The notes: generated from the letters alone by a model not told the origin. 17,537 bases of DNA from Promethearchaeota archaeon (GCA_048938895.1 JBHLLU010000004.1:111884-129420); one strand, 5' to 3'. Shown: positions 1 to 9,486, numbered from the stretch's first letter. Numbers and translations are program-made.

Positions 1-607
1 CATTATAATCCATAAATTCCTTCTCTACATAAGTAAAAACAATTTCGTATAATTGTCTGAATAACTCCTCCGGAAAAGCTTTTTGTTCGAAAACCACTTC
101 ATGAACTAATTCTTCAGAAAGAATTTGGGAGTTAATAGATTGGTGACAGATTAAGAAACTCATCATTGCCTTCTCAACTTTAGATTTAATTAGTTTTTTA
201 ATTACGTTCAATGCAATATCTCTTTTTGGATCCACAAAGTATGGAAACTTTAAGTCATCTAAGATCTTGACATAGTTCAAAGAATCTGTCATTTTCTCAA
301 CACAATATTCCAATGAACTTACATTAAGCCCAAATTTCTCACAAAATTCGGCTTTAGTCTCATGAGCAGGAAATGCAAAGGGATGCCTTGATATAATATA
401 GTATGCCGCAATAAAAAATTTATACAGATTATGAGGAATTTTCCCGTTATTTCTTAAATATTTATATACTAATGTAGTAGTGTCCAATAATAGATCGGTA
501 TCTATGTCGAACTGCTCTAAAAAATCTTGACCATCTTTGAGTAAATCAATCGTTATGCGTTCTTTAGTGTTGATCGTTTCATATTCAGGGGTATAAAGTT
601 CTAACAT
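1..607 (-). CDS. Hypothetical protein with an N-terminal cyclin/TFIIB-repeat-like helical domain (3' end outside window)
   Basis: Not in the ORF track; translated by hand. ATG at 607-605 opens a stop-free frame to the window edge (~202 codons): MLELYTPEYETINTKERITIDLLKDGQDFLEQFDIDTDLLLDTTTLVYKYLRNNGKIPHNLYKFFIAAYYIISRHPFAFPAHETKAEFCEKFGLNVSSLEYCVEKM... The segments AAYYIISR and ETKAEFCEKFGLNVSSL resemble the AAxxYxxxR and TxxEIAxxxxVSxxxI pattern of TFB/cyclin repeats. The CDS is secure; the fold is inference. Confidence 0.75.
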   Translation of the reverse strand, partial: MLELYTPEYETINTKERITIDLLKDGQDFLEQFDIDTDLLLDTTTLVYKYLRNNGKIPHNLYKFFIAAYYIISRHPFAFPAHETKAEFCEKFGLNVSSLEYCVEKMTDSLNYVKILDDLKFPYFVDPKRDIALNVIKKLIKSKVEKAMMSFLICHQSINSQILSEELVHEVVFEQKAFPEELFRQLYEIVFTYVEKEFMDYN

Positions 608-810
608 TTTATACACACGACAGTATAATATTTGTATGACATATCGATCATACCTCTTCTTGTCATATTTTAAAATGCTCCGACTAATTTACGCAGTCTT
701 TTAAAAGTATGTAATATCGATATGTTGTTTTGATAATATTCATATGTTATTTTTCATATTTAAATGTGATGCATCATAATTGTTGCACTTTAGGATCTAA
801 TTTGCAAATA

Positions 811-872: not shown

Positions 873-1325
873 ATGTCGCTCGATTCGGATAACCAAGAGG
901 AAAAACAGAAAAGAATAACCGTTAAACTAGACGAATTTGATAAGATAGTTGTTAGTAGGATGGCAGCTAATAGAAATATCTCTTTATCACATACAATGCG
1001 AAACATAGTTCATCAATGGATTGAAGAGAATCCCAACGTATTAAAAACCAATTATGGGATTGATGTTGAAGAAATTTCAGAACGCCTTGCTTTAGAAACT
1101 GCGAGTGTCTTACTAGATAAAACAATGAAACCATATGAAAAAGCAATCATAGAAGAACTGCCTCAATTTTTTGAAATGGTTGAAGATGTCAGTTTAGAAG
1201 ATATGGCAGAGAGATTTGATGTTAATGCTAAGGCAATAAAAAATATAATTTTCACTCATGGTAAAGAAATAAAACAACTTGGACTAACTCTGAAATATAA
1301 AGAAAATCGAATTTATAGAGAATAG
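873..1325 (+). CDS. Putative DNA-binding protein: N-terminal ribbon-helix-helix (CopG/Arc/MetJ-like) plus C-terminal HTH/winged-helix-like region
   Basis: KRITVKLDEFDKIVVSRMAANRNISLSHTMRNIVHQWI fits the RHH strand-helix-helix pattern. VSLEDMAERFDVNAKAIKNII...LTLKYKENRIY looks like an HTH followed by a beta wing. Confidence 0.7.
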   Translation: MSLDSDNQEEKQKRITVKLDEFDKIVVSRMAANRNISLSHTMRNIVHQWIEENPNVLKTNYGIDVEEISERLALETASVLLDKTMKPYEKAIIEELPQFFEMVEDVSLEDMAERFDVNAKAIKNIIFTHGKEIKQLGLTLKYKENRIYRE

Positions 1326-1326
1326 A

Positions 1327-1334
1327 GAGGTGAT
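1327..1334 (+). promoter_or_regulatory. Shine-Dalgarno-like GAGGTGAT upstream of the 76-aa ORF
   Basis: Strong match to the archaeal SD consensus immediately after the stop codon of 873-1325. Confidence 0.45.
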
Positions 1335-1354: not shown

Positions 1355-1585
1355 TTGGAGCGGATTTATCAAGAGATTATAAATGAATCTTATGAAAGAT
1401 CCCATCAAAATAAACCTAAAAATGATATCAATTATTCAGAATTAGTAATTCCTTTTTCTCAAATATGTAAATCAGATAAATCCAGAGATATTTATGCTGG
1501 AAACGAAAAAATCCCGTTTAAAGAGAGGGATTATGAGTTTAGGATGATTTTAAAACATGAATTTTCTAAGCTACTAAAGATATAG
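1355..1585 (+). CDS. Small hypothetical protein, paralog family member 1 (DIYxGxExIPFxE...EF motif)
   Basis: C-terminal NYSELVIPFSQICKSDKSRDIYAGNEKIPFKERDYEFRMILKHEF aligns with the ORFs at 7998, 8318 and 8654. The start codon (TTG) is uncertain. Confidence 0.8.
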   Translation: MERIYQEIINESYERSHQNKPKNDINYSELVIPFSQICKSDKSRDIYAGNEKIPFKERDYEFRMILKHEFSKLLKI

Positions 1586-1692
1586 ATTTGTTAGCTAATT
1601 TATCAATTATTTGTTTTTGAAAGATTTACATTTTATACAATTTTGTGAGGGTTGTATTAATTCTTTTATACTAGAGTAATGTAATTCTTATT

Positions 1693-3027
1693 ATGAAATC
1701 TAAACAATTTTTGCTCAAAACTCTATTAATTTTTAGTCTTTTTCCATTAATAATCAACCCCGTTAATTTAAATCCTACAGAAGCAAGATCACCTAATATT
1801 GCAGCAAATTCTGAGTGGGTTTCAATTTGGAGCATATTTGATAACAAAAATGAAGTGAGTATAGATGTAGATGTTGATAGTAATGATGATGTAATAATGG
1901 GGGGATATGTCATTAATTCCTCAGTGGATTATTTTGTAACCAAATATGATGAAAATGGAGTTCAACTTTGGAATGATACTCGTGATGGTGGTAGTCAAGA
2001 TTGGTTCAGAGCTCTCACAGTTAGTGGGACAGATATCTATGTAGGAATTGATTTTTATAATCAAACAAGATATGAATGCTTTCTGGGAAAATTTGATGTT
2101 TCTGGAAATCATTTATGGAATATTTCATGGTTTAAAACAGGAGCGAGTGGTTGCTATACTCGAGATTTGGCTCTAAGTCAAGCAGGTGATTTTTATTTTA
2201 CTGGGGAGATGGCATATGGGTTTTCACCGTCCTATACATATCAGTATTTTATTGTAAAGCTTAATTTTGCTGGGAATGAAGTATGGAATATGACTTTCGG
2301 TGTAAAAAATGAAACTAGGAAAACAATACACGGAATTGCTACATTTAATGATATAATTTATTTGGTTGGCCAAGAACGTAATTATACTCGAAGTGAAAAT
2401 GATCCCCTAATAATATGCGTAAATGCAACTAATGGATATCAGCTTTGGAATAAATCTTGGACGGTGCAGGATTATAATGAAGGAAGAGCTACAGATGTTA
2501 TTGTAGATTCTTCTGGAAATTTCTATGTTTCTGGTTATTATGGCGCAATGTTTAATACTGAGGTTTTCCTAAGGAAATACAATCCCTCAAGTGATCTTAT
2601 TTGGGAGGAAACATATAAAGATATCTCTTCAAAAGCTCAAGGGATTGCACTAGAAGATAATTCTAATATTTATATTTCAGGAAGTACTGAAGAAGATTTC
2701 TCAGGAAGCTCTGCCTTGTTATTAAAATACGCATCAAATGGATCTTTGCTCGGAGAAGGATCATGGAAGAGAGATACCACAAGTGGTCAGAATTATGGAC
2801 ATAATGTTGAGGTAGACTCCTCTGGAAATGTTTATATGGTTGGGGTAACTCCCGGAATAATTGGGACTGATGCATTTATAATTAAGAATTTGGAATTATT
2901 AAAACCAAGAAGTGGTGGAAAAGATAATGTGATTCCAAGTTTTAATAGTTGGATTATAATGGCAATTCTAGGATGTTCAATTCTTTTGGTAATGAAAAAA
3001 AATCATTTAAAGAATAAACAAACCTAA
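1693..3027 (+). CDS. Secreted/cell-surface beta-propeller protein (SBBP-like repeats) with a Loki-CTERM-like C-terminal anchor
   Basis: N-terminal signal peptide; repeated DSSGNxYVxG and xxKYDxxGxxLW units; 10 N-x-S/T sequons counted; C-terminal IPSF + hydrophobic helix + KK. Confidence 0.8.
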   Translation: MKSKQFLLKTLLIFSLFPLIINPVNLNPTEARSPNIAANSEWVSIWSIFDNKNEVSIDVDVDSNDDVIMGGYVINSSVDYFVTKYDENGVQLWNDTRDGGSQDWFRALTVSGTDIYVGIDFYNQTRYECFLGKFDVSGNHLWNISWFKTGASGCYTRDLALSQAGDFYFTGEMAYGFSPSYTYQYFIVKLNFAGNEVWNMTFGVKNETRKTIHGIATFNDIIYLVGQERNYTRSENDPLIICVNATNGYQLWNKSWTVQDYNEGRATDVIVDSSGNFYVSGYYGAMFNTEVFLRKYNPSSDLIWEETYKDISSKAQGIALEDNSNIYISGSTEEDFSGSSALLLKYASNGSLLGEGSWKRDTTSGQNYGHNVEVDSSGNVYMVGVTPGIIGTDAFIIKNLELLKPRSGGKDNVIPSFNSWIIMAILGCSILLVMKKNHLKNKQT

Positions 3028-3043
3028 TTCTTATTTCTTTTTT

Positions 3044-3883
3044 TTATTTAATGGGGACAATGGCCACTGGTCTTACCCAAGCTGCACTTGCTTTAAGAAT
3101 TTTGATAGGAAAACAGCTCACCTTAAAACCATAAGGAGGCAGTTGATCTAAGTTAGCTAATTTTTCCATTTGATAATACTCTCTTTCAATCCCGGCAAAA
3201 TGACCCTCCCAAATAAAATTTCTATCTCCTGTCTCGCGAAATTCCTTAGCTTGAAATTGAAAAGGACGATCCCAACCTGCTGCGTCAGTTCCTACTACTT
3301 TTATTCCTTGATCTACCAACCAGATTGTTCCTTCTCTTCCTACTCCGGAATAATCAGTCCAGTATTGCATAGTATCCCATAATTTATCCGCATCTGTCCG
3401 AATAAGGACAATATCTAAGGGTTTCAGCGTATATTTTATTTTTTGAAGAGCGTCTTGTATATCCTGCGAACTTATCAAGTCTCCAGGTTTTTTATGAGTC
3501 ATATCAAGAACTACCCCATCACTAAAGCAATATTCTATCGGAATCTCGTCAATAGTTTTTGACTTTTTTCCTTCACTTGTAGGATGATAATGCCATGGAG
3601 CATCCATATGTGTACCCATATGAACTCCAATTGTTAAATAATCATCAGCCCACGCTAAACCATCGGGAAGATCATCAGCAGAAATTCCAGGAAAGGAATT
3701 TAACATTACTGAAACATTATCTTTATGATCAGCATGTCTGATCTTAGCAGATAATCCTGCTTCAAGGTATTTAAATTCTTCTGGTATATCCCCTAAACCT
3801 TCTTTAATTTCCAAACTCAAATCCACAAATTTTAATTTTTTTGACATTATATTTTGATCTTCAATTATTGGTAATAAAGACAT
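3044..3883 (-). CDS. Cyclase family metal-dependent hydrolase (kynurenine formamidase KynB-like)
   Basis: HMGTHMDAPWH matches the HxGTHxDxPxH signature, plus DIVLIRT, GIKVVGTD and E-x-LANLDQLP. An alternative start is the ATG at 3847 (MSKKLKFVDLS). Confidence 0.9.
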   Translation of the reverse strand: MSLLPIIEDQNIMSKKLKFVDLSLEIKEGLGDIPEEFKYLEAGLSAKIRHADHKDNVSVMLNSFPGISADDLPDGLAWADDYLTIGVHMGTHMDAPWHYHPTSEGKKSKTIDEIPIEYCFSDGVVLDMTHKKPGDLISSQDIQDALQKIKYTLKPLDIVLIRTDADKLWDTMQYWTDYSGVGREGTIWLVDQGIKVVGTDAAGWDRPFQFQAKEFRETGDRNFIWEGHFAGIEREYYQMEKLANLDQLPPYGFKVSCFPIKILKASAAWVRPVAIVPIK

Positions 3884-3939
3884 ATTTGGGTAGAGAGAAT
3901 ATTACCTTAAATATATATTAAAGACAAGAATAGTTATTA

Positions 3940-4428
3940 TTACTTTCTTCTATCAAATTTTTTAGTTTCCTTTTCAAATGTGCCTGAAGTAATGATCTCA
4001 ATTTCAGAAAAATTAAGCTTTAGAAAATTTGTATCATTATCTGATAAAAAGTCCTTTATATCCATTATTTTCGATTCATATTTCATTATCTCATCAGCGA
4101 TCATTCTATGACAAACTATAGCTCCCGAATATATTGCTTGAGCGGTAAACCGAAAAACCGTCCAACCATTGTCGATTAAAAACTTGGTTTTTCTTAAATC
4201 ACTTTTTCTTTCGTCAGGTGCTTTATAATCTAATAGGATATTATCACATTCGATGGCAATTTTATATTTTTCAACGGCAAAATCAACTGTAGTTTGTCCT
4301 ATAGTTAAATGTGCTTCATATAAATCTAATAATTTACTCGGAGCAGAATCTATAAAAAATTCTTCATATTTTGATTTGCAGGATTGTTTTAAATATTCTC
4401 TTCTTGAATTTGTCAAAACTAATTTCAC
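3940..4428 (-). CDS. DUF559/Vsr-like PD-(D/E)xK-fold protein, possibly catalytically degenerate
   Basis: IGQTTVDFAVEKYKIAIECD...DLRKTKFLIDNGWTVFRFT matches the DUF559 pattern IGxYxVDF...LxIExDG...DxxRxxFLxxxGWxVxRF. Confidence 0.7.
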   Translation of the reverse strand: MKLVLTNSRREYLKQSCKSKYEEFFIDSAPSKLLDLYEAHLTIGQTTVDFAVEKYKIAIECDNILLDYKAPDERKSDLRKTKFLIDNGWTVFRFTAQAIYSGAIVCHRMIADEIMKYESKIMDIKDFLSDNDTNFLKLNFSEIEIITSGTFEKETKKFDRRK

Positions 4429-4538
4429 CTATATTCCTATTATTGTAAATGAGATTTATGAGAATCATTGATTATTACGATTTTGAGTTTATTATATATA
4501 TTCTAAGAGTAATAAAAATTATTCATCATAGAATAGTC

Positions 4539-4556
4539 TTGGACTTTTTTGTCCAA
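4539..4556. promoter_or_regulatory. Inverted repeat TTGGAC-N6-GTCCAA, candidate transcription-factor operator
   Basis: Perfect 6-bp arms in the divergent DUF559/MFS intergenic region, just upstream of an AT-rich TATA-like stretch (about 4564-4575). Confidence 0.35.
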
Positions 4557-4620
4557 AGTGACATAAAATATATATGAAAATGGAAGATATCCCTTTATTC
4601 ATAACTTAAATCTAATATAA

Positions 4621-6006
4621 GTGATTCAATTGTCATCAGACGTAGAAGAAGTAGAATTCGAAACTGAGACGTCATGGCGTAATGTTTTCTATTGGGCAAT
4701 GTATGATCTGGCAAACACGATTTACTCCATGGTAATCGTAAGCTTGATTATTGGCAAGTACGTACTTGTCATTGGACAATTAGAAGATGGAATGTCATAC
4801 GGTGAAGCAAGTTTTCTTTTTGGAATAGTTAGTACACTCATGCAAGTCGTAGTAGCTATTTGTGTTCCCATTTTAGGAGCATTGAGTGATAATGTTGGAA
4901 AGCGTAAACCGTTTGTAATAAGTTTAACAGGTATCATCCTTCTTTTCGCGAGCTTGCTTGGATTCTTTCACGATATAACCACGGTTTTAGTTTTATATGT
5001 AATTGCTAACGTTGCTTATCAATTTAGTCTTACTTTCTATGATGCTATGCTCCCTTTTATCGCAAAGCGAGAGGATATTGGAAAAGTTGCAGGATTCGGA
5101 GTTGCTTGGGGTTATTTAGGTACAATTCTTGCATTAATAGTTATGTTTCCCTTTATATTTATTATAGGTGATTTAGTATCAAGTCCACCAAAAGAGATAG
5201 GAGATCCAGCAATAGGTTATGGTTTTGCCGGAAATTGGGTTTCATTTGCGTTGCCTATGTACCTATTTTTGCTTTGCACGATCCCGTTTTTATATGTTCG
5301 TGAAAAACAGAAGAAAAGGAAAAGGCCACCTATAGGTAAATTAATCAAAAATACTTTCAGTCAACTAAGAAGTACTTTTAAGGACATTAGAAAACACAAA
5401 TCAATGTTTATCTTTATTATAGGGTATTTCTTTGTTGCCGATATCGCCAATGTAATAGTTCTCTATATGACACTTATAGTTACTGATGGACTAATTATAG
5501 CAGAGGGATCAAATATATTTGCTATCCTTTTTATTATACTTGCCACGATATCTGCAGTTGTGTTTACATATTTTGTTGGGAAATTTGGTGAAAAGCACGG
5601 TGCCAAAAATACATTTTTTCTAGTAGGCTCACTGTGGGGTATTTCATTACTAATTGGTATACTTCTAATATTTCTAACTCCATCCATTGATGTGGGTTTA
5701 AATCTCCCTTTTTTGCTTAGCCTTATTATGGGCGTGGTAGCCGGTCCTGCTCTAGGAGGAACTTGGACAGCACAACGGATAATGGTTGTAGAACTTGCTC
5801 CTAAAGAAAAATTCGGAGAATTTTTTGGATTTTCAAAGTTAAGTGGGAAATTTTCCTCAGCATTAGGTCCATTTCTTTTTGGTACTATTTTAATATCTTA
5901 CGATGCTATAGGTAAAGCAGCGTACGGCTGGGCAATGATATCTGTTGGTATAGTAATGGCTATTGGAATATTTATTATTTCCTTAGTTAAATCTAACCAA
6001 TCCTAA
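4621..6006 (+). CDS. MFS transporter, UMF1/YxiO/Atg22-like family
   Basis: About 12 hydrophobic segments; WAMYDLAN, PILGALSDNVGKRK (MFS motif A), FYDAMLP, GWGYLG-like AWGYLG and GEFFGFSKLSGKFSSALGP are typical of UMF1-type MFS proteins. Confidence 0.9.
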   Translation: MIQLSSDVEEVEFETETSWRNVFYWAMYDLANTIYSMVIVSLIIGKYVLVIGQLEDGMSYGEASFLFGIVSTLMQVVVAICVPILGALSDNVGKRKPFVISLTGIILLFASLLGFFHDITTVLVLYVIANVAYQFSLTFYDAMLPFIAKREDIGKVAGFGVAWGYLGTILALIVMFPFIFIIGDLVSSPPKEIGDPAIGYGFAGNWVSFALPMYLFLLCTIPFLYVREKQKKRKRPPIGKLIKNTFSQLRSTFKDIRKHKSMFIFIIGYFFVADIANVIVLYMTLIVTDGLIIAEGSNIFAILFIILATISAVVFTYFVGKFGEKHGAKNTFFLVGSLWGISLLIGILLIFLTPSIDVGLNLPFLLSLIMGVVAGPALGGTWTAQRIMVVELAPKEKFGEFFGFSKLSGKFSSALGPFLFGTILISYDAIGKAAYGWAMISVGIVMAIGIFIISLVKSNQS

Positions 6007-6012
6007 AATCAA

Positions 6013-6025
6013 TTTTTTTTTTTTT
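6013..6025 (+). terminator. Oligo-T (T13) archaeal terminator
   Basis: Run of 13 T beginning 7 nt after the MFS stop codon. Confidence 0.55.
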
Positions 6026-6166
6026 AATTTAATTACAATTACTTAACTACAATTTAGAATGTGTTCATGATTTTATATTTCGATTACTATTCTTACTCTA
6101 ACTATAGTTCAGTTCTTTAATCTATAAAAAAAAGGGAAATTTATATTAGAATATTATGATTTCAAG

Positions 6167-6490
6167 GTGAAAATGGAAATGAGAAAAATCAAAATAACTG
6201 TTGTTAAACAATTTGGGCCAAAAGATGTGCTAGGACATGAGTTTATAAGACCAGATGGAAGACCAATCACTAAATGTGGTATGAAAGAAGGTATGGAATT
6301 TTTTGTAGATGAAAATGGAAACATGCCAGATGACTTTTGTCATCATGCTTGGTATGGGTTATATAAAAACATCAATATTTTACAATGTGGTGGGGGATTT
6401 GCTGGTTGGACTGGAGAAGATATGATCTATACTGCATGTCCTGATGGCATACGACCTGTATGCTTCAAATTAGAAAGAATTAAAGACTAA
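6167..6490 (+). CDS. TIGR04076 family protein
   Basis: KIKITV...C...EG.EF...P..FCHHAW...ACPDGIRPVCFKLERI is characteristic of this small Cys-containing family. The true start may be one of the ATGs at 6173 or 6179. Confidence 0.85.
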   Translation: MKMEMRKIKITVVKQFGPKDVLGHEFIRPDGRPITKCGMKEGMEFFVDENGNMPDDFCHHAWYGLYKNINILQCGGGFAGWTGEDMIYTACPDGIRPVCFKLERIKD

Positions 6491-6497
6491 AATTATC

Positions 6498-6509
6498 TTT
6501 TTTTTTTTT
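6498..6509 (+). terminator. Oligo-T (T12) archaeal terminator
   Basis: Run of 12 T beginning 8 nt after the stop codon. Confidence 0.55.
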
Positions 6510-6614
6510 CCTAATTTCCTCAATAATCGCAATCAGTTTTTATAAAGATTTTTAATTTATTTAAAATTAAGATTCAAAATATTGAAGATTTAATAGAATA
6601 GAAGGAGAAAACTT

Positions 6615-7820
6615 TTGGAGATTCGAAAATTAACTGGAAAGGATCGTGAAACTTGTCAAAAACTTATGCGCTATGCTTTTACAACCTCAATGAATTCATA
6701 TGAAGATCTTGAGTATCCTAATGAAAAGATACCGATGGATTGGTATCATGGTGCATTTGAAAAGAATTTATTAATTGCCTGTGCGGGGTCTATTCCTTTT
6801 GATATTCGATTACGTTCTAGCGATTTTAAAATGGGAGGTGTAATGGGGGTTGCTACTAAACCAGAATACCGAAATCGAGGAATAATTAGAAAAATAATAG
6901 TGAAAATGTTTAAAGATATGTATGATAGCAATATTCCAATTTCAGTTTTATATCCATTCAAAGTAGCCTTTTATGAAATGTTAGGTTATAAGCTTGTTGA
7001 TGAAATAATTTACTATCAATTCAAAATCTCAGATATCATAACGAAAAAAACAAGTTATTCTATGCAAGAAGTAGAACAAATAAATGATGACATAAGAAAA
7101 GTGTATGATAAGGCTATATTAAATTTTGATTATATAGCTAAAAGACCTTCTATCAATTCGTGGTGGACTCACTTCAAAGGAAACTATAAATTTATCTGTT
7201 ATAATGGTGATGAGCCAGTAGGTTATATTCTAATTAGCTTTCCAACCATAAATTTATTAACAGGTAGGTTGTTAACAGGTAGGTTAGCAAGCCCAGAAAG
7301 AACAATTATAATTAATGAGACTTTCTGGCTTAATCAAACCGCTAAACAAACAATTTTTAATTTTCTGTGGAGCCATCGTGATCAACGAAAATACGTAGTT
7401 GGGGGGTTTTCTGAAAGTGAGATAATAATTGATCTATTAAAAACACCACGAGTTAAAGTACGTCAAACCACTGCTAACTCATTGTTAAGAATCATTGATA
7501 TAAAGACTGTTTTAAAGAATATAGAATATCCTATTGATAACTTTACCATATCACTTCACATCCATGATGAGTATTGCCCATGGAATGATGGAATTTTTAT
7601 TTTAAAATCAGAAGGGAAGAGTATTGAGGTCGAATACATGAAATCATCCATGACAGCAGATATAGAATTAGACATCGGTCATCTCGCTCAACTTATAGGG
7701 GGGTTTAGAACTGTATATGATTTACTTAAATTTAATTTCATATCGATCAAGAAGGATAAATTTGAGCTTTTAGAGGCTTTATTTCCAAAAAAAAATAATT
7801 TTATGTGTGATCACTTCTGA
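6615..7820 (+). CDS. Eis-family GNAT acetyltransferase (tandem GNAT + SCP2-like domain)
   Basis: GVATKPEYRNRG (acetyl-CoA motif A), SVLYPF...FYEMLGY, RIIDI...L, D.YCPWNDG and a C-terminal Phe (DHF) as in Eis. GAAGGAG SD lies upstream of the TTG start. Confidence 0.9.
   Translation: MEIRKLTGKDRETCQKLMRYAFTTSMNSYEDLEYPNEKIPMDWYHGAFEKNLLIACAGSIPFDIRLRSSDFKMGGVMGVATKPEYRNRGIIRKIIVKMFKDMYDSNIPISVLYPFKVAFYEMLGYKLVDEIIYYQFKISDIITKKTSYSMQEVEQINDDIRKVYDKAILNFDYIAKRPSINSWWTHFKGNYKFICYNGDEPVGYILISFPTINLLTGRLLTGRLASPERTIIINETFWLNQTAKQTIFNFLWSHRDQRKYVVGGFSESEIIIDLLKTPRVKVRQTTANSLLRIIDIKTVLKNIEYPIDNFTISLHIHDEYCPWNDGIFILKSEGKSIEVEYMKSSMTADIELDIGHLAQLIGGFRTVYDLLKFNFISIKKDKFELLEALFPKKNNFMCDHF
7254..7285 (+). 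repeat. In-frame 15-bp tandem duplication (LLTGR x2)
   Basis: TTATTAACAGGTAGG TTGTTAACAGGTAGG TT; one mismatch between the two units. Confidence 0.85.
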
Positions 7821-7997
7821 TCTAATAGAATCTACCCTTGAGTTCATATTCTATTGATAATTCGATAAAAATGCGGGAAACTCCATTGTTTTTTATATAA
7901 AAACCTTTGTTTTTATTTACGCTTAAATAAAATCATTTTATTAAGAAAATAACAAATAAAAATGATATAATTTCAATACGTCTAAGCAATTAAAATT

Positions 7998-8204
7998 ATG
8001 CTCACTGAAGATGTTATCAAAATTTATCAACAAAGTATTGAACGTTTGGATGAAATAGTAATTCCAAATATCTCAGGTGCTGTCATGTCATTTCATAATT
8101 CTGATAAATTTGAAGAAAAATACATTTATACGGGAGAGGAGAAAATTCCTTTCAATGAAAGAGACTCTGAATATCAACAGATTTTTAAGGATGAATTTCT
8201 CTAA
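7998..8204 (+). CDS. Small hypothetical protein, paralog family member 2
   Basis: NISGAVMSF...YIYTGEEKIPFNERDSEYQQIFKDEFL; 16/25 identities with the 1355 ORF from IY to EF (manual count). Confidence 0.8.
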   Translation: MLTEDVIKIYQQSIERLDEIVIPNISGAVMSFHNSDKFEEKYIYTGEEKIPFNERDSEYQQIFKDEFL

Positions 8205-8270
8205 GGTAAGTTTATGCTTTAAAAATAAAGTAAAAAATATTTTTAGATAATCTCACCAAAAACCTGTTTC

Positions 8271-8278
8271 TTTATATA
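8271..8278 (+). promoter_or_regulatory. Putative TATA box for 8318-8629
   Basis: TTTATATA about 40 nt upstream of the ATG at 8318. Confidence 0.45.
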
Positions 8279-8317
8279 CATATAATTAAAAAAATCGTAA
8301 AAGAATATAGTTTTACG

Positions 8318-8629
8318 ATGTCTGTCAGATCAAATTCTATAGAAAAACAAGTTGAAGAATTTTTAGAAAATTCATATTGCTCTGAAGATACAGTATTTAA
8401 TGAGGAAATTCAAAAAAAACGATTTTCTTTGCTTTCAAGACTAGTAGATGATTTATTCAATTGTAATAATTCAATAATATGCTTCCATAATATCTCAAAT
8501 CTTATAATATTAATATTAAATATATATAATGAGAAATTTCCAATTGATGTTTACTCAAATGGTAAGAAAAGCTTAGTCCAAAAGCCGGATCCCGAATTAA
8601 AGCGTATTCTTAAAGAAAATTTTCTTTGA
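8318..8629 (+). CDS. Small hypothetical protein, divergent paralog family member 3
   Basis: C-terminal NISNLIILILNIYNEKFPIDVYSNGKKSLVQKPDPELKRILKENFL aligns without gaps to members 1 and 4 (S-x-L, D-[IV]-Y, E-x3-IL-x3-F). Confidence 0.75.
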   Translation: MSVRSNSIEKQVEEFLENSYCSEDTVFNEEIQKKRFSLLSRLVDDLFNCNNSIICFHNISNLIILILNIYNEKFPIDVYSNGKKSLVQKPDPELKRILKENFL

Positions 8630-8653
8630 AGGTGATCCAAAAAAATTAAACTT

Positions 8654-8959
8654 ATGGATTTCACTAAATTTGTCGGGAGCTTTCTCTTAAATAAACTCAA
8701 TCCTATGAAGAAATTAAATAAAAGGAGTAAAGTACATAACATGAGTTTAAAAATAACAGAGAAAAAAATACAGGATCTAGAACCTGAAACAGAAATTATC
8801 GAAAATTTCCCAGATATATCAAAGTTGATAATCCCTTTCTCTGTCGCGTTTAGAAGTTTTGGTCCATCAGATATATATACTGGAGAAGAATTAATTCCTT
8901 TTAAAGAAAAAGAAATTGAATTTAAAGAAATATTAATTCACGAATTTCTTGCTAAATAA
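8654..8959 (+). CDS. Small hypothetical protein, paralog family member 4 (probable true start 8741, 72 aa)
   Basis: DISKLIIPFSVAFRSFGPSDIYTGEELIPFKEKEIEFKEILIHEF; 24/45 identities with the 1355 ORF (manual count). AGGAG at 8723-8727 precedes the ATG at 8741. Confidence 0.8.
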   Translation: MDFTKFVGSFLLNKLNPMKKLNKRSKVHNMSLKITEKKIQDLEPETEIIENFPDISKLIIPFSVAFRSFGPSDIYTGEELIPFKEKEIEFKEILIHEFLAK

Positions 8960-9150: not shown

Positions 9151-9486
9151 TTATTTTCTATTTTCAATTGATATTGTTTCTGGCATTAGGAATGTATTTA
9201 AACATAAAGGACAAGAATTGTAATCTAATAACCAATTAGTAATACATTTTCTGTGAAATTGACTTCCACAATAAGGACATTTAATATTCCTATTTTGTTG
9301 CGAGTTAACTTTTTCATGACATATAACACAACTTATTTTCTTGATAGAAGAGAAATTAACCTTACCTAAACTTTTCCCACATGATGGGCAGAAGTTAATG
9401 TGAACTGTATTAGGCTTTGAAAATCTCCTTCCACAATAAGGACAAAATCTAAAATTATGATTAGTCATATTAATCCCATATTTCAT
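9151..9486 (-). CDS. Zinc-ribbon + RING-finger protein (putative E3 ubiquitin-ligase-like)
   Basis: N-terminal FCPYCG...FCPSCG zinc ribbon; C-terminal CVIC-x13-CPYC-x4-H-x2-C-x3-W-x6-CPLC with the RING-typical W and CPxC. Confidence 0.85.
   Translation of the reverse strand: MKYGINMTNHNFRFCPYCGRRFSKPNTVHINFCPSCGKSLGKVNFSSIKKISCVICHEKVNSQQNRNIKCPYCGSQFHRKCITNWLLDYNSCPLCLNTFLMPETISIENRK

Follow-up and report, generated by a model that had tools for sequence, protein, structure and literature searches.

Four small genes ending in one block

A 17,537-nucleotide (nt) stretch of the genome of a Promethearchaeota archaeon (GCA_048938895.1, JBHLLU010000004.1:111884-129420), hereafter the window, carries four short open reading frames (ORFs) on the plus strand, at positions 1355-1585, 7998-8204, 8318-8629 and 8741-8959, whose products share a C-terminal block of about 45 residues. 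Both the ORFs and the block had been pointed out in a preliminary description of the window, made by a model from the sequence alone, and all four frames were found where it had placed them. Among known prokaryotes, the Promethearchaeota, or Asgard archaea, are most closely related to eukaryotes; much of their gene content is uncharacterised.

Member 1 ('A type'; 1355..1585, + strand) encodes 76 amino acids (aa) when read from TTG 1355. Its frame opens at 1334 and holds no ATG, TTG 1355 being the first common start codon, and the position of its start codon is uncertain. Member 2 ('B type'; 7998..8204, + strand; 68 aa) leads a tandem cluster with the next two members (B-C-D). Member 3 ('C type'; 8318..8629, + strand; 103 aa) is of a divergent subfamily, which has an additional N-terminal helix and lacks the IPF motifs of the others. 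Member 4 ('D type'; 8654..8959, + strand) encodes 101 aa when read from ATG 8654 and 72 aa when read from ATG 8741. Its start may be at 8654 instead of 8741: homologues of both lengths occur, and in one relative (locus L011) a stop codon lies inside the extension, with the frame opening at 1174. Public data contain 24 clusters homologous to member 4 (59-92% identity, 60-132 aa), and at least one orthologue carries the label hypothetical protein (P0019, 'Candidatus Heimdallarchaeota archaeon'). A search of the protein atlas gave no usable match for member 4.

The C-terminal block is common to all four products, as pairwise BLASTP and profile-profile comparison confirmed. BLASTP aligned member 1 with member 4 at E 1e-14, member 1 with member 2 at E 6e-10 and member 2 with member 4 at E 4e-10. 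The identities counted earlier by hand, 24/45 between members 1 and 4 and 16/25 in the distal part between members 1 and 2, were recovered, and the final Phe indeed lies 23 residues beyond the conserved Tyr in all four, in a stretch free of gaps. The pairwise similarity of member 3 to members 1, 2 and 4 is marginal at the sequence level (E 6e-4, 1e-4 and 2e-3, respectively). Its membership in the family was settled by a profile-profile match, in which 16 sequences of the member-3 type were aligned by hhalign to 27 sequences of the other members over 62 columns (96.8% probability, E 2.8e-10). In addition, identical residues are often differently encoded, in keeping with the codon divergence reported earlier: different codons are used at 9/16 such residues between members 1 and 2, at 7/16 between members 1 and 4 and at 6/14 between members 2 and 4. 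Therefore, conservation is at the protein level.

Comparison with orthologues of the same genus (Nei-Gojobori) gave ratios of nonsynonymous to synonymous substitution rates (dN/dS) of 0.12-0.62 in 23 of 26 cases, the other three having saturated dS. Since the proportion of synonymous differences (pS) was at least 0.47 in all comparisons, these ratios are only approximate and would err on the high side. Such a comparison had been proposed at the outset; it places dN/dS below 1, although dS is saturated. Open frames and motif are kept across dozens of genomes. Furthermore, a Shine-Dalgarno (SD) core of at least 5 nt stands 4-18 nt before an in-frame start in 17 of 91 family ORFs, compared with 2.5 +/- 1.6 (maximum 8) in random-frame controls (n=200). 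The four members in the window are outside this spacing range. Read from the sequence, an SD-like AGAGGTGAT (1326..1334, + strand) lies upstream of member 1, directly past the stop codon of the preceding gene, and an SD-like GAAGGTGATC is found just past the stop codon of member 3; in both cases the first canonical start is over 18 nt away. On comparative evidence, all four ORFs are real genes, and their products are part of an as yet unnamed small-protein family (about 60-130 aa).

Range and subfamilies

The preliminary description spoke of a four-member family. A profile built from the four members found seven in the genome, four on this contig and three on contig C152 (E<=8e-6), the next matches being at 0.03 or worse. 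The same seven were returned by a hidden Markov model (HMM) of the block run over all six-frame ORFs of the genome (E<=2.8e-6, next match 0.21). The three further members, identified in both searches, lie at 1795-2088 (+), 43116-43334 (-) and 44463-44678 (-) of contig C152 (genome G000), where two of them flank an ORF for a 278-aa membrane protein and one is located between helicase genes.

A profile of 54 members, searched against 1.84 billion representative proteins, matched 273 clusters with E<=1e-3, of which 134 had E<=1e-10; among the 150 clusters listed, all but three have lengths of 42-120 aa. All genome counts given here are from samples, in which absence means not found in the genomes searched. 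Matches were present in 68 of 81 genomes of the family-level clade to which the organism belongs and in 0/19 genomes of three other families of the same order. In a phylum-wide sample, 56/68 genomes of this clade had a match, compared with 0/232 in 29 other families; within the clade, none was found in genera g3 (0/4) and g8 (0/1) of that sample. The earlier view of a lineage-specific set is borne out by these counts, together with the lack of curated family matches. Overall, restriction of the family to a single family-level Asgard clade is well supported by the sequence searches. In the protein atlas, a neighbouring gene bears the label 'Promethearchaeota'. No relative was seen in the viral contigs searched or in phage records. 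A full-text literature search returned nothing on the family, which is weak evidence of absence from print since an unnamed family cannot be searched by name.

Inspection and a maximum-likelihood tree of 85 module sequences, built on only 72 columns and with many forks unresolved, separate two deep subfamilies: the C type, to which member 3 belongs, and the IPF type, which includes members 1, 2 and 4. The C-type clade has 100/100 support. It comprises 29 of the 85 rows, from eight genera (g1, g2, g4, g5, g6, g7, g9 and g10), and is the subfamily of widest distribution. C-type proteins are longer (about 105-127 aa), with an extra N-terminal helix QKKKFxLLSKLVxDLF; ISNLIILxL replaces the first IPF motif and the loop is looser. 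The IPF-type consensus reads ISxLIIPFS...DIYSGxExIPFxERDxEYKxILxxEFL. Members 1, 2 and 4 (A, B and D types) each cluster with orthologues from the same genus (support 85-93). Thus the types are old, separately maintained groups, neither recent nor interchangeable copies, and they are under purifying selection.

Column conservation was counted over the 54 members, with member-1 numbering. In the first motif, I32 is found in 45 sequences, P33 in 41, F34 in 42 and S35 in 42. In the loop, the counts are D45 40, I46 48, Y47 51, G49 47, E51 47, I53 44 and F55 44, and in the last helix I65 48, L66 42, E69 51 and F70 53. Hence, the best-conserved positions are aromatic, aliphatic and acidic, and are carried by the loop and the last helix. 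Family members are soluble, and most of them are mildly acidic (median isoelectric point 5.1).

The shared module and its candidate partner

An AlphaFold2 monomer model of member 1, computed from an alignment of 54 sequences, has a predicted local distance difference test score (pLDDT) of 75 and a predicted template modelling score (pTM) of 0.33. It contains three helices (residues 2-18, 34-40 and 60-74), which are connected through the conserved loop but do not pack against one another. Residues 51-70 are best defined (pLDDT 88-89). The proteins have a single helix-loop-helix unit. Because the modelled monomer is unpacked and the conserved aromatic, aliphatic and acidic positions lie on one loop and one amphipathic helix, the shared module is most likely a protein-binding or oligomerisation surface.

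No known fold was recovered with the member-1 model. Foldseek returned no match in the PDB at E<=10, a Foldseek-independent fold search (VIA wide, 48,161 chains) gave a best Z of 2.9, with long-helix proteins only, and the best E in BFVD was 2.7. The four members had no Pfam match better than E 0.08 and no match in NCBIfam or PADLOC at E<=0.01, and across the 54 members no Pfam family recurred in more than two. The preliminary description recognised no named family in the motif, and Pfam, NCBIfam, PADLOC and PDB sequence and fold searches all left it without an assignment. With the tools used, the module is without detectable relation, in sequence or predicted structure, to any curated family or known fold.

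The gene just upstream of member 1 (873..1325, + strand; 150 aa), which ends 30 nt before it, encodes a putative regulator with an N-terminal ribbon-helix-helix (RHH) domain and a helix-turn-helix (HTH)-like C-terminal part. The N-terminus gives sub-threshold Pfam matches to DUF6290 (1e-3), RHH_1 (0.012) and ParG (0.019), a match to NCBIfam RelB_antitoxin over residues 15-52 only (E 3e-5; 24.3 bits for a cut-off of 50), and a match to ParG in the PDB that is likewise below cut-off (0.011). Matches of the C-terminus to HTH-type domains are weak. Of the 81 genomes searched in the clade, 69 carry the gene, which occurs in all 13 sampled genera and is nearly always single-copy. In 19 of 30 RHH loci, from genera g1, g2, g4 and g5, a family member follows directly on the same strand; the member-1 type lies 12-60 nt (up to about 160 nt) downstream, co-oriented. 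The gene pair is still kept where the RHH proteins of different genera are down to 23-26% identity. Diverged copies were recognised by eye in two further loci, L083 (g5) and L090 (g23), where YSKLxIPFSKF and the last helix are retained and the loop is lost; copies of this diverged kind also occur at L084 and L088 (both g5), which are among the 19 matched loci.

In genera g6 and g7, the module is found in fused proteins, in which one or two tandem modules are followed by a conserved domain of 185 aa. Fused proteins of 242-338 aa are encoded at L039:4326-5300 (-), L040:3479-4453 (+) and L041:3121-3846 (+), and the public entries P0127, P0147 and P0174-P0179 have the same arrangement; one fused form, from a genus other than that of the window, has the source label 'Thorarchaeota'. 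The 185-aa domain has no match in Pfam or in the genome under study, and the AlphaFold2 model of a fused 324-aa protein was unusable (pLDDT 40.9). Two other public entries are of composite build. P0151 (210 aa, a single cluster) consists of an EVE domain (PF01878, 3e-12) and a C-terminal family module. In P0180 (285 aa, partial), a C-type N-terminus ends just before the last helix and is followed by a tyrosine recombinase (PF00589). Integration of a mobile element at the 3' end of a C-type gene could account for this, as could an artefact of gene calling.

The non-compact monomer model, the operon with the RHH regulator and the occurrence of the module beside other domains in fused proteins make small adaptors or regulators that bind a partner the most plausible reading. 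In its full form, to which we give roughly even chances, the family would consist of small partner or modulator proteins with the shared module as their protein-binding surface, members 2-4 being diverged, stand-alone users. More tentative, possible but open to doubt, is the proposal that the member-1 type has the RHH/HTH regulator of the adjoining upstream gene as its target. Mechanistically, the module (short helix, conserved loop and amphipathic C-terminal helix), not compact on its own, would provide a protein-binding or oligomerisation surface. Member 1 would bind the RHH regulator and modulate its activity, and members 2-4 would be stand-alone duplicates, their copies of the module being directed at this partner or at different ones.

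Several observations weigh against this partner-binding reading. No family match lies downstream in 11 of the 30 RHH loci. Two of the RHH loci stop at a contig edge, and seven (six in g6, one in g22) have no candidate ORF at all downstream, so in those genomes the regulator works without the small protein. More generally, shared gene order inside a single taxonomic family is poor evidence that products interact physically. No conserved neighbour is seen for members 2-4 or for the widespread C type: in five genera the C type stands amid housekeeping genes (Thi4, radical SAM, adenylate kinase, dehydroquinase, ribosomal L11/L1/L10), and in g6 it is found between a gene of an unknown family and MFS transporter genes. 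The B-C-D tandem adjoins a convergent RING-finger gene in 11 loci, all from the same genus; the RING protein was considered as a partner and rejected, the adjacency being restricted to this genus and not seen in the other genera examined. Finally, the low pTM of a helical protein of 76 aa may reflect the limits of the model rather than the need for a partner.

Other explanations account less well for the data. The whole window is low in G+C (24-35%), and the composition of this DNA, about 26-30% G+C, is one in which long open frames easily arise; moreover, no ATG is found in member 1. Remnants of decayed genes, or frames open by chance in AT-rich sequence, are nevertheless hardly conceivable, and the comparative sequence data already contradict them, with open frames and motif in dozens of genomes, 273 public clusters, dN/dS below 1, identical residues under different codons and orthologues of each type at conserved positions. 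A dimerising helix-loop-helix of the EF-hand kind, similar to the S100 pseudo-EF-hand and with Ca2+ or another metal as ligand, was suggested by the search of PDB sequences with the family profile, in which all matches fall in the first pseudo-EF-hand loop of S100A4 and S100Z. There, the S100 stretch YSGKEGDKFKLNKSELKELLTRE is aligned to the family consensus YsgeEkipfkerdpeykeILkeE, and the AlphaFold2 model is helix-loop-helix in the matched region. The likeness comprises a helix, a loop that starts with Y-S/T-G-x-E and includes an aromatic residue, and a following amphipathic helix with many K, E, I and L residues. The best value (E 0.0016) is not significant; it stems from two identical repeats of an engineered fusion chain. 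Each stretch has E 11-12, and natural S100 chains 0.046-0.47. At E<=10, neither S_100 nor any EF-hand model of Pfam is matched by any of the 54 members; in the genome, PF01023 (S_100) has no match at E<=10 and PF13499 (EF-hand_7) has five weak ones, none at a family gene. The column of member 1 E61, aligned to the loop-closing Glu ligand of S100, contains E in 31 of the 54 members, K in 9, D in 5 and other residues in 9, and there is a conserved Pro within the loop. Moreover, the family has one helix-loop-helix instead of a pair, its proteins ending right past the second helix, and S100 proteins have been described from vertebrates only. Without profile matches or a conserved Glu ligand, membership in the S100 or EF-hand families was rejected; the resemblance is one of pattern only, and a metal-binding module of this kind is very improbable.

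The neighbourhood of member 1 also recalls a type II toxin-antitoxin pair, with the RHH gene as a RelB-like antitoxin, member 1 as a small toxin and the other members as orphan toxins. The N-terminus of the upstream protein resembles the RHH domains of RelB, CopG and ParG, and the order of regulator and small gene with a short gap, on one strand and across genera, is like that of such loci, in which the antitoxin gene usually precedes the toxin gene by a short gap, and of plasmid ParG/CopG operons. However, all RHH matches are below curated cut-offs (24 bits for a required 50), no toxin, antitoxin or partition family is matched above cut-off here, and none of the four members matches a toxin-family or defence model in Pfam, NCBIfam or PADLOC. 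The RHH gene is chromosomal, kept in 69/81 genomes, nearly always in single copy, and next to the same 213-aa gene in 29/30 loci, which is a vertical, housekeeping-like pattern, unlike that of patchy, mobile toxin-antitoxin loci. In addition, most family members, including members 2-4 and the C type, lack an antitoxin-like RHH neighbour. We therefore regard a toxin-antitoxin pair as very unlikely. Somewhat less remote, though still unlikely, is the proposal of the preliminary description that the paralogues hetero-oligomerise or serve as interchangeable subunits on one common partner. Three types do stand in tandem (B-C-D), here and in relatives of the same genus, one conserved module is common to all members, and the two tandem modules of some fused proteins make module-module contacts conceivable. 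On the other hand, several genomes, such as G098, G040, G086 and G097, have one match each, so hetero-oligomers of paralogues cannot be obligatory, and this part of the proposal is left unsupported. Interchangeability is not supported either: the four copies fall into orthologous groups, each kept across genomes and not homogenised, and the C type is deeply split off (100/100) and devoid of the IPF motifs.

What is new here is at the level of the family, for which there is no curated family, solved structure or fold match, and not at that of mechanism. Lineage-specific 'dark matter' reportedly accounts for 30-80% of the genes of archaea (PMC6393860). The present proteins resemble such small families in being short, 'hypothetical', narrow in range and present as several paralogues per genome. 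They differ by an unusually strong 45-aa block, clear subfamilies, an operon partner for one type and fused forms. Together they form a clearly delimited family whose very small proteins have multiplied in a single Asgard clade. Since the module is a sharply conserved one of 45 residues, with clear subfamilies, an operon partner for one type and natural fusions, the family offers a tractable entry to lineage-specific regulation: it is of a size suited to nuclear magnetic resonance, a partner candidate is at hand and the paralogues provide natural variants. A broader scenario, which we think improbable, would see the family as a clade-specific invention in which an ancestral pairing with the RHH/HTH and 213-aa genes was followed by duplication into types A-D and by fusions, giving a partner-switching network that tunes transcription. 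If true, this network would be a regulatory layer without a described counterpart.

Other genes of the window

Divergent from the RHH gene lies a conserved gene of an unknown family (2..616, - strand; about 213 aa), the end of which is outside the window. It is this gene that adjoins the RHH gene in 29 of the 30 loci. Its product has no match in Pfam, NCBIfam or the PDB; by eye only, it recalls a cyclin/TFB-like helical repeat, which no tool supports. The region between the two genes (617-872) contains two ATATCGAT-centred palindromes. They were considered as a conserved operator and rejected: with the core in just 5 of 28 orthologous intergenic regions, they are probably no clade-wide operator. 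The upstream regions of the four small genes have only AT-rich words in common.

The RING-finger gene that converges on the B-C-D cluster (9151..9486, - strand) encodes a RING-finger/zinc-ribbon protein of 111 aa (zf-RING_2 1e-8, Prok-RING_1 1e-7), with four weaker paralogous matches elsewhere in the genome. Between member 1 and the cluster, the plus strand encodes a small protein of the TIGR04076 family (6167-6490; 4e-20), relatives of which occur as two or three tandem copies beside the small-protein cluster at L014 and L028, and an Eis-like GNAT acetyltransferase with an SCP2 domain (6615-7820; 5e-29 and 4e-16). On the minus strand, positions 3940-4428 encode a DUF559/restriction-endonuclease-like protein (1e-6).

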